DNA of 57,839 bases, filler included, from Catajapyx aquilonaris (lineage: Eukaryota): assembly GCA_000934665.2 (NCBI GenBank). It is 3 parts of 3 records of this genome, joined end to end, with 100 filler letters (N's around TTAATTAATTAA, not from the genome) between each part and the next. Parts side by side here need not be neighbours in the genome. Positions count along the whole stretch, not along the records: positions 1 to 19,232 come from JYFJ02006513.1; 2 more parts are not named here. One strand, given 5' to 3'. Positions within the stretch are counted from its first letter, which is position 1. Each line of letters begins with the position of its first letter. Positions 2,858 through 14,534 of the stretch are shown one piece after another. Position numbers and translations under genes: made by a program. The notes beneath the pieces were generated by a model. It ran no database searches. It was not told the DNA's origin and was given only the letters and a program-made list of their open reading frames with translations.

Positions 2858-4663
2858 ATGGCAGCCTCACTCCCACATCATCTGCCAGAGTCCTTCGACA
2901 ATTGTAACAGCGATTGTTCAGAAGAGAGCGAGACAACTTCTGATGGCACAGAGATGGGGATTAGTGTCCCTGACTCTCATCATTTGGACATGTTGCGCCA
3001 ACAAGACAACTTCCGCCACGCCTCCATTTTCTGTGACGTCGATCTGATATGTGAGGATGGGACTTCCCTTAAGGCCCACCGAGTTGTACTTGCAGCATCC
3101 AGCCCCTACTTCAAGGCCATGTTTTCTGGGGGGCTGGCGGAGGAGCAGCAGTCTCGGGTTCCCATCCGTGAGGTGTCGTCTGCAGCCATGAAGATGCTGG
3201 TTGATTGTGTGTATACTGGACGCATGGAGAAGTTGTGTCAAGGTAATGTGGGGGAGGTGGCCATGGCAGCCAACATGCTTCAGATACCCACGGCTGAAGC
3301 CTTGTGCACCAAGTTCATGAGCCAACATCTGGACAAGTCCAATGCAATTGGTGTGCACAGATTCGCCACTTCATGTAACTACACCAAGTTGGCAAATTGG
3401 GCCTCCAGATTTATTGAGGCCAACTTGGACACTGTTTCTACGTCAGAAGAGTTTATGAATCTGTCAAAGGAGGATCTGCCACAGTACTTGATGAGCAGTA
3501 AAATAAACTGCCGTAGGGAGGGAAAAGTCTTGAGAGCTGTGATCGCCTGGATTGAAAAGTCCGTAGGGGAGAGGAGGATTTATGCTCATGAACTGTTGGA
3601 GTGTGTAAAGTTATCACTGATACCACACATGAGCGCCATTTGTGATTCCATATGCAATGATGCTGCTCTGAAAAGCATTGTGCAATGTAAGTTTGAGGAT
3701 GCGGAAAAACACTCTTCAGGAGAATCAGTGGTAGAAGGAAAATCTGGGATCACAACTGTCATATATGCAGTTGGAGGGTGGGAGTGTGACACAATGCAAC
3801 TGATGATATCCAAAACTGTGTGGTACTTAAACATGCGTTGTGGTAAGTGGCACAAGTCAGAGGGTGGGGGGTCCAGTGATGACAGGCATACTACTCGAGC
3901 TCATCCTGCCATTGCTACCATTGGATCTACTGTTTACCTGGTAGGTGGTACCACTGAAGATGAGGAAGTGTTGGACTCGTATGATTTTTACAGCACAAGT
4001 GAGGAAACTTGGTTTAAGGGTCAAGGCAGACTTGAAGTCGGACGTGTTCATTTTGGCCTGCAAGAATTAAATGGCTGCTTATATGCATTTGGAGGGCTTG
4101 ATGAGAATAATACTGACCTTGGGAGCATTGAAAAGCTTGATCCCAAGAATGGTGAATGGCATGTGATTGGCCACATGCCCAAAGCAAGATATGGCATACG
4201 AGTAGTTTCTTATGGAGATCTGATTTATGTGGTAGGTGGGTGGGATGATAGTTTGAATGACTTGATGTCTTACAATCCAGAAACGAAAGAGTGGAATCAA
4301 CTGTCTCCCTGGTTGAATCCACGCTCGGACATGGGAGTTGCTGTTCTTGATGGCCACTTGTATGTTGTGGGTGGATACGCAGTGGTTGGGGATGACTACT
4401 TACCTTCAGATGCAGTGGACAGGTATTCTTTTGGGAGAAACGAGTGGGAAAAGATCGCTGCTTTGAAACGGGGGATAACGAATCCGGGAGTGACAGCTGC
4501 TAATGGCTGCCTGTATGTTCTTGGTGGAGAAGTGGGAGGGGAGAATGGGGTGTTGGAGTTGACTTCTGATGTTGTGTATTACAATCCCGAGACAGGTGAA
4601 TGGAAGTCTGGGACATCAATGCCAAAACCCTGGAGCGGGTGCACTGTGTGGACAAATGCGTAA
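2858..4663 (+). CDS. Kelch-like protein A1 (BTB-BACK-6x Kelch), single coding exon, ~601 aa
   Basis: BTB motif FCDVDLICEDG..LKAHRVVLAASSPYFKAMF, BACK motif (EGKVLRAVIAWI), six GG-containing Kelch repeats. Start placed at ATG 2858 because acceptor ttttgttacAG (2848-2849) precedes it and paralog A2 starts at the equivalent MAASL. Confidence 0.93.
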   Translation: MAASLPHHLPESFDNCNSDCSEESETTSDGTEMGISVPDSHHLDMLRQQDNFRHASIFCDVDLICEDGTSLKAHRVVLAASSPYFKAMFSGGLAEEQQSRVPIREVSSAAMKMLVDCVYTGRMEKLCQGNVGEVAMAANMLQIPTAEALCTKFMSQHLDKSNAIGVHRFATSCNYTKLANWASRFIEANLDTVSTSEEFMNLSKEDLPQYLMSSKINCRREGKVLRAVIAWIEKSVGERRIYAHELLECVKLSLIPHMSAICDSICNDAALKSIVQCKFEDAEKHSSGESVVEGKSGITTVIYAVGGWECDTMQLMISKTVWYLNMRCGKWHKSEGGGSSDDRHTTRAHPAIATIGSTVYLVGGTTEDEEVLDSYDFYSTSEETWFKGQGRLEVGRVHFGLQELNGCLYAFGGLDENNTDLGSIEKLDPKNGEWHVIGHMPKARYGIRVVSYGDLIYVVGGWDDSLNDLMSYNPETKEWNQLSPWLNPRSDMGVAVLDGHLYVVGGYAVVGDDYLPSDAVDRYSFGRNEWEKIAALKRGITNPGVTAANGCLYVLGGEVGGENGVLELTSDVVYYNPETGEWKSGTSMPKPWSGCTVWTNA

Positions 4664-4685
4664 ATGCTTGGACAATGTCTCCCAC

Positions 4686-4940
4686 TCCACGCGTATATGT
4701 AACGATGGGGTCAGGACTTTCCTCTGATTTTTAGGACACAAAGTTGTGAATTTCACTTTTAATGACACACCAAACGAACGACTAGATTCCCCAGTTATAG
4801 ACTCATGTGGCCTTGCAACGAATTGAGTCCATAACTGGGGAGTCTAGTCTTTCCTTCAGTGTGTGATTTGAAGTGTTTTGTGAAATCGGCAACTTTTAGT
4901 CTTTAAAATGAGAGGAATGTTATGATATACCCGTAATGGA
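4686..4940. mobile_element. Degenerate foldback/MITE-like palindrome
   Basis: ttcctctgatttttaggacacaaagttg (4719) pairs with caacttttagtctttaaaatgagaggaa (~4890-4917). Inner gactagattccccagttatagactca pairs with tgagtccataactggggagtctagtc. Confidence 0.7.
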
Positions 4941-12128: not shown

Positions 12129-12509
12129 CACCCCCCAGTCACTCCCTATACCAATACATTGCTACACCGTGAGCTCATCTGATCTTCCCCACCGAGGGGG
12201 ATTAGCCACAGTCAGCGCTAGAGTCACTTACCGAGATGGTGGCGCCTTACTTAGCGGGGCAATTCTGAATCATTAGGTTCGACTCCGATTGGCTGGAGTT
12301 TTAAAAGGCCTCCTGTGGTTCTCCATGGCTCTTTCTAAACGATTTACTACCTCCAGCCAATCGGAGTCGACCCTAATGGTTCAGAATTGCCTCTCAAGGT
12401 AAGGCGCCACCATCTCGGTAAGTGATTCTAGCGCCGACCGTGGCCAATCCTCCTTGGTGGGGAGATCAGCTATGTTCACGGGAAAAGAGGGAGAGTGACT
12501 GGGGGGGTG
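12129..12509. mobile_element. 381 bp foldback MITE, absent from duplicate copy 1
   Basis: Ends caccccccagtcactc / gagtgactgggggggtg. Arms of ~170 bp include cacttaccgagatggtggcgccttac and tcgactccgattggctggag with their reverse complements. Confidence 0.85.
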
Positions 12510-12704
12510 CCTCATCATGTGACGCATCATGTCAGGAAAGGAGGATTTGTCATGTGTCATACCATAGTAACCACCATGCTCATCATGGGTATTGACATTG
12601 ACAGATTCACTCATGCATTTTGCTGATTGTGAAGACCTGTGCCATAATGTTCAATTAATACTAACAATAAACCACACTGTCCTGGTTTTGTTACAGCCTG
12701 TGTC

Positions 12705-14534
12705 ATGGCAGCGTCACTCAGACTGTATGATATGCTACAGTCCTTCGACTATTGTAACAGCTATTGTTCAGAAGAGAGCAAGACTACTTCTGATGGCACA
12801 GAGATGGTGATTAGTGGCCCTGACTCTCATCATTTGGACATGTTGCACCAACAAGACAACTTCCGCCACTCCTCCATTTTCTGTGACGTCGACCTGATCT
12901 GTGAGGATGGGACTTCTCTTAAGGCCCACCGAAACGTACTTGCATCATCCAGCCCCTACTTCAAGGCTATGTTTTCTGGGGGGCTGGCGGAAGAGGGGCA
13001 GCCTCAGGTTCCCATCCATGGGGTATCATCTGCGGCCCTAAAGATGCTGGTTGATTGTGTGTATACTGGACGCATGGAGAAGTTGTGTCAAGGTAATGTG
13101 GGGGATGTGGCTGCAGCAGCCAACATGCTTCAGATAACCACGGCTGAAGCCTTGTGCACGGAGTTCATGAGTCGTCATCTGGACGAGTCCAATGCAATTG
13201 GTGTGCACAGATTCGCCGCTTCATGTAACTACACCAAGTTGGCAAATTGGGCATCCAGATTTATTGAGGACAACTTGGATGCTGTTTCTACTTCAGAAGA
13301 GTTTATGGACCTGTCAAAGGAGGATCTGCCACAGTACTTGATGAGCAGTAAAAGAAACTGCAACAGGGAGGGAAAAGTCTTGAGAGCTGTGATCGCCTGG
13401 ATTGAAAAGTCAGTAGAGGAGAGGCGGATTTATGCGCATGAACTGTTGAAGTATGTAAAGGTAGCAATGATACCATATTTGAGTACCTTTTGTGATGCCA
13501 TATGCAATGATGCTGCCCTGAAAAGCATTGTGAAGTGGAAGTTTGAGTGTGCAAGAAAGAACTCTTCAGGAGAATCAGAGGTAGAAGTAAAATCTAGGAT
13601 GACCACTGTCATATATATTGTTGGAGGAATGGAGTATGGTGAGAGACCACGGAAACCAGGAAGGGATGTTACCTTTTCCAAGACTGTGTGGTTCTTAAAC
13701 ATGGGTTATGGCAAGTGGTACAAGTCGGAGGGTGAATGGTCCAGTGAGGACAAGTATTACCACCCTTCCATTGCTGCCATTGGATCAACTGTCTACCTGG
13801 TAGGTGGTCGCGGTGGCAATCGGAACGTGTTGGACTTGTATGAGTTTTACAGCACAAGTGGGGAAGCTTGGTTTAAGGGTCAAGGCAGACTGGAAGTTGG
13901 ACGTTCTGATTTTGGTCTGCAAGAATTAAATGGCTGCTTATATGCATTTGGTGGGAGAGATTGGGAATATACTCCCCTTGGGAGCATTGAGAAGCTTGAT
14001 CCCAAGAATGGTCATTGGCATGTGATTGGCCACATGCCCAAAGCGATGTATAGCATGGGTGTTGTTTCTTATGGAGGTCTGATTTATGTGGTAGGTGGGT
14101 GGGATGATTCATGTGATCCTTTGAATGACTTGATGTCTTACAATCCAGTAACAAAACAGTGGAATACACTGCCTTCTTGGTTGAATCCACGTTCGGACAT
14201 GGGAGTTGCTGTCCTTGATGGCCACTTGTATGTTGTGGGTGGATACGTAGCGGATATTGATGACTGCTTACCTTCAGATGCAGTGGACAGGTATTCTTTT
14301 GAGCGAAACGAGTGGGAAAAGATCACTCTTATGAAGCTGGGGGTTGCAAAGCCAGGAGTGGCAGCTGCTAAAGGATGCTTGTTTGTTCTTGGTGGAAAAG
14401 TGATAGGGGCGAACGGGTTGTTGGAGGCGACTTCTGATGTAGTGTATTACAATCCCAAGACATGTGAATGGAAGTCAGGGATATCAATGCCAAAACTCTG
14501 CGGTATGTATGGAGCATTTACAGTGCAATATTGA
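12705..14534 (+). CDS. Kelch-like protein A2 (BTB-BACK-Kelch), paralog of A1, 609 aa
   Basis: Intact ORF closely matching A1 in BTB/BACK. Same upstream acceptor ttttgttacAG at 12695-12696. Confidence 0.93.
   Translation: MAASLRLYDMLQSFDYCNSYCSEESKTTSDGTEMVISGPDSHHLDMLHQQDNFRHSSIFCDVDLICEDGTSLKAHRNVLASSSPYFKAMFSGGLAEEGQPQVPIHGVSSAALKMLVDCVYTGRMEKLCQGNVGDVAAAANMLQITTAEALCTEFMSRHLDESNAIGVHRFAASCNYTKLANWASRFIEDNLDAVSTSEEFMDLSKEDLPQYLMSSKRNCNREGKVLRAVIAWIEKSVEERRIYAHELLKYVKVAMIPYLSTFCDAICNDAALKSIVKWKFECARKNSSGESEVEVKSRMTTVIYIVGGMEYGERPRKPGRDVTFSKTVWFLNMGYGKWYKSEGEWSSEDKYYHPSIAAIGSTVYLVGGRGGNRNVLDLYEFYSTSGEAWFKGQGRLEVGRSDFGLQELNGCLYAFGGRDWEYTPLGSIEKLDPKNGHWHVIGHMPKAMYSMGVVSYGGLIYVVGGWDDSCDPLNDLMSYNPVTKQWNTLPSWLNPRSDMGVAVLDGHLYVVGGYVADIDDCLPSDAVDRYSFERNEWEKITLMKLGVAKPGVAAAKGCLFVLGGKVIGANGLLEATSDVVYYNPKTCEWKSGISMPKLCGMYGAFTVQY

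Follow-up and report, generated by a model that had tools for sequence, protein, structure and literature searches.

Repertoire of putative Cul3 receptors in Catajapyx aquilonaris

A stretch of 57,839 nucleotides from the genome of Catajapyx aquilonaris (in the following, the window) contains two intact BTB-BACK-Kelch genes, A1 and A2, which probably belong to a lineage-restricted, diversifying repertoire of Cul3 receptors, whatever the target of these proteins may be. In clade A, the group of paralogs to which both genes belong, the substrate face of the Kelch domain is under positive selection and the cullin-binding domain is under purifying selection. Positions 1 to 19232 of the window represent a single contig (G000:C4034) of the 286-Mb assembly, on which three intact BTB-BACK-Kelch reading frames (A1, B1, and A2) and a broken copy of the B gene (B2) are found (Table 1). 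In A1, A2, and B1, the BTB, BACK, and Kelch domains follow each other in this order (PF00651, PF07707, and PF01344, all above cut-off), and the Kelch domain forms a propeller of six blades bearing the GG, Y, and W signatures, as deduced from the alignment and the strands of the structural model.

In an earlier note on this DNA, it was proposed that A1 and A2 diverge mainly at the substrate-binding face. This is borne out by the distribution of the differences, which affect 43 of the 89 positions assigned to the top face (the B-C loops and the four final residues of the D-A loops) versus 41 of the 210 in the rest of the Kelch domain (p = 1e-6, Fisher test), and the eight loop pairs quoted as examples are each present once and in the order given within the intact open reading frames (ORFs) of A1 and A2. 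A shift from acidic to basic residues was likewise recovered, with the net charge of the top face changing from -16 in A1 to -6 in A2. However, describing the BTB and BACK domains and the Kelch strands as close to identical was overstated, as identities are 86.9, 82.7, and 86.0%, respectively, although all three are more alike than the top face (52%). In addition, the start assigned to the locus, 3760, falls inside the Kelch domain of A1, whereas the gene starts at 2858.

Positive selection on the clade-A top face

Selection was analyzed with purpose-written numpy codon models, not PAML, using F3x4 frequencies and naive empirical Bayes, for the eight complete clade-A genes over 575 gap-free codons, excluding five partial or broken loci. 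Model M2a was preferred over M1a with a likelihood-ratio test (LRT) statistic of 111 (10.6% of sites, omega 4.3), M8 over M7 with 125, and M8 over M8a with 109. Rather than being evenly spread over the protein, 18 of the 26 selected sites are located in the 75 codons of the top face (p = 1e-11). The latter was defined by a rule based on the GG and Arg motifs and the model strands, which was set after viewing the site list, so that this enrichment is not a blind one.

With a shared synonymous rate, omega is 2.0–2.3 on the top face, 0.43 in the bottom loops, 0.5 in the strands, 0.32–0.37 in BTB, and 0.51–0.65 in BACK. The reading with a shared rate is supported by the four-fold sites (seven genes), whose divergence is not raised on the top face, with values of 0.181 [0.096–0.272] there and 0.165 [0.133–0.197] elsewhere; for the same reason, local hypermutation of the loops was rejected. 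Independent of any model, second-position divergence on the top face amounts to 0.313 [0.252–0.371] in seven genes. Instead of a loop dN/dS of 1 or below, nonsynonymous divergence (dN) of the top face thus exceeds the neutral level in clade A, being higher than the synonymous divergence (dS) of the remaining sequence in 28 of 28 pairs, albeit these are not independent of each other. Insertions and deletions follow a similar distribution, as 11 of 14 tracts in the Kelch domain are found in B-C loops and three in the D-A side loop, while bottom loops and strands have none. A general variability of loops as such was rejected as the explanation, since the bottom loops, which serve as control, show an omega of about 0.4 and no indels.

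An artefact of misaligned loops, of gene conversion among the paralogs, or of multi-nucleotide mutations is a very improbable source of this signal. Segment trees do conflict, at low support, and allowing double and triple hits lowers the LRT of M2a versus M1a from 111 to 45; moreover, neutral simulations with mosaic histories reach an LRT of 40 when multi-hits are ignored. When these are fitted, however, the simulated maximum is only 7, in a small set of six simulations that all contained multi-hit codons, one without and five with mosaic histories. In addition, LRTs of 51 and, with multi-hits, 30 persist in 453 strict columns, obtained by removing the two ends, the blade-1 loop, and all columns up to three positions from a gap, and selected sites are at gap-free, motif-anchored pocket positions (GG+1, R+1, and R+2). 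BTB-BACK alone and the Kelch domain minus its top face give LRTs of 10.6 and 22.1, respectively, both within the simulated null range.

The pocket in IPP orthologs

The control of most weight is the comparison with orthologs of IPP from the same genome and seven insects. The 24 motif-anchored pocket columns (in each blade, GG+1 and the positions Arg to Arg+2) show a mean pairwise identity of 31% for seven clade-A genes versus 77% for these eight IPP orthologs. The opposite applies to the BTB domain (86% in clade A versus 58% in IPP) and to the bottom loops (84% versus 53%). Hence, the part most conserved in IPP is the part most changed in the clade-A paralogs.

Fold and putative Cul3 docking

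The AlphaFold2 model of the A1 Kelch domain (mean predicted local distance difference test score of 80.3) shows target-normalised template modelling scores of about 0.9 to the Kelch domains of KLHL17, KLHL3, and KEAP1, and the best fold matches are cullin-RING ligase 3 (CRL3) complexes. In the BTB domain, all seven clade-A and all five clade-C rows possess L-A-E, aligned to L-R-E of KEAP1 and L-S-E of KBTBD2, a hydrophobic-X-Glu sequence which we take to be the Cul3 motif. One Cul3 gene was found in the genome. The motif alignment and the presence of this gene suggest that clade A docks on Cul3. The diversifying E3-adaptor repertoire envisaged in the earlier note finds support in the selection on clade A and its location, while homology and the conserved motif argue for the predicted role as Cul3 adaptor. 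Binding of Cul3 by BTB domains (passages of PMC4403949 and PMC1257465) and formation of the Kelch substrate pocket by the B-C and D-A loops (passages of PMC12314335 and PMC9022995) have been described.

Besides, the genome shows more than 100 weak BTB matches, mostly open frames of about 320–420 codons and often in tandem (contigs C1465, C1607, C1635, C4217, C1329, and others). The three that were checked are all of the MATH-BTB type (L069:666-1718, L069:4667-5752, and L070:535-1596), and we regard the set as a second, larger expansion of Cul3 adaptors in this genome. In addition to Cul3, three further cullin genes were observed (contigs C1153, C126, and C1720; Pfam Cullin). Two of them are Cul1-like and near-canonical; the third is strongly diverged and, by eye, of the Cul1 type, resembling cul-6 of C. 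elegans.

Origin and turnover of the family

Among named BTB-Kelch proteins, those closest to the A1 Kelch domain are insect IPP proteins, with up to 43% identity. In a tree of 37 rows, all 21 rows of the family fall into a single clade (98/95), which is sister to the IPP orthologs and not placed inside them. As the family is outside the IPP clade and its pocket residues are replaced, its members are considered as IPP-derived paralogs and not as orthologs. The genome's own IPP ortholog (contig C1178) has a single coding intron, which is kept at the same position in the intermediate family copy on contig C3122, whereas clades A to E read through. Regarding BTB-BACK, this own IPP is the closest IPP for all eight family rows tested, and its branch is short; in the tree, it is placed outside the sampled decapods and winged insects. 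Derivation of the family from IPP is well supported by these comparisons, in contrast to its date. The coding region of A1 is intron-free, and a splice acceptor 9 nt 5' of its ATG is common to nine of nine clade-A copies compared; a retrogene origin was not sustained, since the loss of one intron with the 5' acceptor kept is too little evidence for this claim.

Genome searches in which all 67 candidates for the A1 Kelch domain and 150 of 254 for BTB-BACK were scored, together with inspection of further stretches, revealed 29 related loci, a lower bound that possibly includes some alleles. Among them, 18 are open from BTB to the last blade, four are cut by contig ends, and seven are broken, making this a multi-copy family with pseudogenes. 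Clade A comprises 13 loci, B four, C nine, and D and E one each, plus one IPP-like gene. In clade C (L018-L022), the blade-1 B-C loop is extended by a long acidic insertion of about 30 residues, many of which are Asp, Glu, or Ser. The A copy on contig C10308 is interrupted where its Kelch domain begins, at a short inverted repeat (L050:2990-3010), either through a genuine lesion or through an error of the assembly.

Other organisms yielded no family member, with best matches of 43% (Kelch) and 38% (BTB-BACK) identity in a comparison lacking related genomes. Likewise, in a profile search against 1.84 billion representatives, none of the 25 best of 150 matches resembles the family at more than 39% identity. 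The matches are mostly long multi-Kelch proteins, the sole full-length one being a decapod IPP cluster, and five of the 150 match the family more than 10 bits better than IPP, all at less than 30% identity.

Weighing of the evidence

Several results weigh against a diversifying repertoire of Cul3 receptors. When the synonymous rate is freed on the top face, omega decreases to 1.67–1.75 (LRT 7–9), and under the same setting it is 1.47–1.48 for the 34 strict top codons (LRT about 2, not significant) and about 1.0 for the D-A part alone. Constraint on the scaffold is loose, as indicated by a pairwise omega of 0.43–0.72 outside the top face. The youngest pair, A2 and its copy on contig C5414, differs by 31 amino-acid changes gene-wide, seven of them on the top face, and by 10 synonymous ones, and A2 shows derived changes at conserved sites. 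For clade C (six rows, one of them with an in-frame stop and read from after it), selection is marginal with an LRT of 34, or 12 with multi-hits, and the pocket is 70% identical; the selection result is therefore specific to clade A, and as an independent replicate, clade C is no more than marginal.

The near-neutral appearance of the youngest pair, the marginal clade C, a scaffold omega of 0.4–0.7, the non-significant strict top-face omega, and the seven broken loci would all fit redundant duplicates drifting under relaxed selection, with tolerant loops and pseudogenes as the endpoint. This is nevertheless quite improbable, as relaxation cannot raise second-position divergence (0.31) above that of four-fold sites (0.17). 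Furthermore, it is opposed by the advantage of M8 over M8a and by the bottom loops, which are equally exposed but remain at an omega of 0.4 without indels.

Two further contrary results relate to cullin binding and origin. Clade B has P-P-E or H-S-E instead of L-A-E, lacking the hydrophobic residue (P-P-E in B1, window 6331–6351; also L012 on contig C5414), and the gene on contig C3122 (L032) shows a deletion at the region of the Cul3 motif. Members of clade B and the C3122 gene may accordingly be viewed as candidates for Cul3-independent proteins or decoys. Diversifying binders acting without Cul3, as sequestering decoys, dominant-negative IPP partners, or cytoskeletal adaptors, would be compatible with these deviations, with the annotation of IPP as an actin-binding protein, and with a BACK omega of 0.5–0.65. 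For the family as a whole, we consider this improbable, in view of L-A-E being kept in clades A and C, BTB being the most constrained domain (omega about 0.33), and the sequence and fold matches being Cul3 adaptors. Finally, the approximately unbiased (AU) test rejects a clade of the family and the own IPP (p = 0.019), leaving the date of origin unsettled; descent from the own IPP lineage could hence not be shown, and long-branch attraction may be at work.

Proposed mechanism and candidate targets

According to the favored explanation, a Cul3-receptor repertoire, the family would have arisen from the conserved single-copy IPP/KLHL27 and would turn over by duplication, unequal exchange, and pseudogenisation in a birth-and-death process. 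Judged by homology, each protein would dimerise and dock Cul3-Rbx1 through its BTB/3-box, and targets would be captured by the Kelch top face, as is established for the Kelch family. Substitutions in the B-C and D-A loops and small in-frame indels, for which selection is evident, would be favored for new binding specificities, and the repertoire would consequently tag a changing set of proteins for degradation. For KBTBD4, a small loop indel has indeed been described to create a new substrate (passage of PMC9525703). The paralogs probably have different targets.

The most likely targets are rapidly evolving proteins of foreign or selfish origin, from pathogens, symbionts, or mobile elements, an assignment made tentatively and with somewhat less than even confidence. 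Alternatively, the same Cul3-receptor mechanism might be driven by the germline, where sperm protein turnover, meiotic drive, or sexual conflict would direct it to fast-evolving proteins of the host. Such a driver, which would share the probability of the receptor repertoire and not exclude it, is unlikely but has to be reckoned with: loss of the coding intron and young duplicates resemble what is seen in testis-biased duplicates, for example rodent Tdpoz and the relatives of KLHL10. For an F-box gene of recent origin, degradation of a host enzyme in hybrids has been reported (10.1101/2024.09.11.612556). However, none of the tested results points to the germline, and the size of the family and its share of pseudogenes are equally compatible with turnover driven by pathogens.

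A more far-reaching and, on the whole, rather doubtful idea, though one deserving consideration, is that a ubiquitin-based intracellular surveillance of the nematode type has evolved independently in this lineage, consisting of the Kelch receptors, the more than 100 MATH-BTB-sized adaptors, and the extra Cul1-type cullins. If so, a germline-encoded repertoire would recognise and degrade proteins of viruses, intracellular parasites, or selfish elements, and the top face of the Kelch propeller would be its variable surface, comparable to that of an antibody. The evidence for expanded cullin adaptors as immune receptors is largely indirect and from nematodes and plants (passages of PMC1866355), and the animal BTB-Kelch proteins would add a third scaffold.

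Irrespective of the targets, about eight close paralogs make it directly testable what fast-evolving E3 adaptors recognise, with the conserved single-copy parent, present in this genome too, as an internal control and with named pocket residues that can be swapped. Moreover, the paralog set maps those positions of a Kelch pocket that can be rewritten with the fold kept, which bears on the engineering of E3 specificity, and it may give a foothold on the poorly studied IPP.

The gene array on contig C4034

A1 and A2 are not sisters, the sister of A2 being the copy on contig C5414. The latter contig (L033:1-8985) repeats window 9614–18242, i.e., the A2-B2 segment, at 91–95% identity and then continues with a different B gene; its A copy may be an allele or a recent duplicate of A2. 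In the self-comparison of the window, 5721–6525 matches 15490–16304, followed by a match of 8014–8070 to 16304–16359, which delimits the loss in B2. Duplicates of the B gene and of the 3' flank diverge by 6.6–8.3%, compared to a synonymous divergence of about 0.20 between A1 and A2, and the array is therefore a mosaic. A single, simple tandem duplication giving A1-B1 and A2-B2 was rejected on the same grounds (dS of about 0.20 versus 7–8% in B gene and flank).

Clade-B genes appear to have two short phase-1 5' coding exons, and the predicted layout of B1 is mirrored at 15494–15788. The second of these exons resembles a tandem duplicate of the main-exon start (5815–5901 versus 15757–15839, 77% match). 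Upstream of A2 and of its copy on contig C5414, a 315-bp insert with inverted ends is present (window 12167–12481), which is absent from the other A copies compared and is probably a small non-autonomous transposon. A 155-bp block (window 11555–11709) is common to the upstream regions of A2 and four other A genes (81–97%), sometimes also inverted, and was not found within 1.6 kb upstream of A1; it may represent a regulatory cassette or a repeat. The remaining window, 19233–57839, consists of other contigs across N gaps with ordinary genes.

Table 1. Features of the window, with positions counted along its whole length.
Feature	Position	Strand	Basis
A1, intact BTB-BACK-Kelch gene, 601 aa	2858..4663	+	ORF; Pfam BTB 51-157, BACK 164-257, Kelch
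A1 BTB-BACK, putative Cul3-docking/dimerising half	3008..3628	+	Pfam
A1 L-A-E motif	3134-3142	+	aligns with KEAP1 'glre', KBTBD2 'glse'
A1 Kelch propeller, six blades	3755..4660	+	AlphaFold2 model, DSSP strands, fold matches
A1 variable top-face loops	3773-3814, 3878-3907, 3944-3967, 4043-4054, 4091-4117, 4184-4201, 4244-4258, 4475-4486	+	
B1, intact clade-B paralog, about 47% identity to A1	5725..7902	+	ORF, Pfam
B1 main exon and two predicted short 5' coding exons	from 6011 (main); 5725-5758, 5847-5939 (short)	+	GT-AG sites, consistent phase 1
A2, intact BTB-BACK-Kelch gene, 609 aa, 77% identity to A1	12705..14534	+	ORF, Pfam
A2 Kelch propeller	13605..14531	+	
A2 variable loops	13623-13682, 13746-13766, 13803-13826, 13902-13913, 13950-13976, 14043-14060, 14103-14126, 14343-14354	+	
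B2, broken B1 copy	15494..16304	+	BTB frameshift near 16225; about 1.5 kb with BACK and Kelch lost
Duplicated non-coding 3' flank, partner of 8065-9522	16714..18143	.	88% BLAST identity; 6.6% substitutions over aligned bases
CRAL-TRIO gene	25364-26131		
Calpain-like fragment, androglobin-like	28964-29812		judged by eye
MFS transporter	35381-37147		
Zinc finger gene	50492-51082		
Ionotropic-receptor-like frame, intronless	53918-55963		

Comparison with known systems

A conserved adaptor combined with a variable binder is the pattern known from F-box and MATH-BTB families of worms and plants, realised here on a Kelch propeller. Unlike in these expansions, the binder is a Kelch propeller on BTB-BACK, the host is an arthropod, and about 29 loci are involved, whereas the nematode and plant families are far larger. 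In the latter, selection is reportedly focused on the substrate-binding domain, as Thomas is said to have found in 2006. Their turnover by birth-and-death has been described together with a role in pathogen defence hypothesised on indirect evidence (passages of PMC1866355), and strong positive selection is reported for C. elegans F-box genes (PMC8120010).

IPP/KLHL27, the actin-binding protein IPP, has the same BTB-BACK-Kelch architecture and an intron position common with the C3122 gene, but it is single-copy in this genome and its pocket is conserved at 77%, in contrast to 13 loci, no coding intron, and 31% in clade A. Multi-copy Kelch substrate receptors for cullin ligases are also represented by plant F-box-Kelch families and poxvirus BTB-Kelch proteins (PMC13262408 and PMC3185573). 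F-box-Kelch proteins, however, use Skp1/Cul1, unlike the present BTB-Kelch family, the poxvirus genes are viral, and neither group derives from IPP as far as tested. Expansions of Kelch or BTB genes are mentioned for a tapeworm (PMC4265353) and a planthopper (PMC13607038), with the passages concerned giving no selection result. A report of a positively selected animal BTB-Kelch or IPP-derived family, in arthropods in particular, was not found in a literature search of limited coverage.

BTB-BACK-Kelch proteins have expanded in vertebrates as well (passage of PMC1257465). The fold, domain order, Cul3 motif, and pocket geometry of the family are those of the vertebrate KLHL/KBTBD receptors of CRL3 (KEAP1, KLHL3, KBTBD2, and KBTBD4). 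These vertebrate receptors are old, stable orthologs with fixed substrates, whereas in Catajapyx aquilonaris young paralogs (dS 0.03–0.25) rewrite the pocket.

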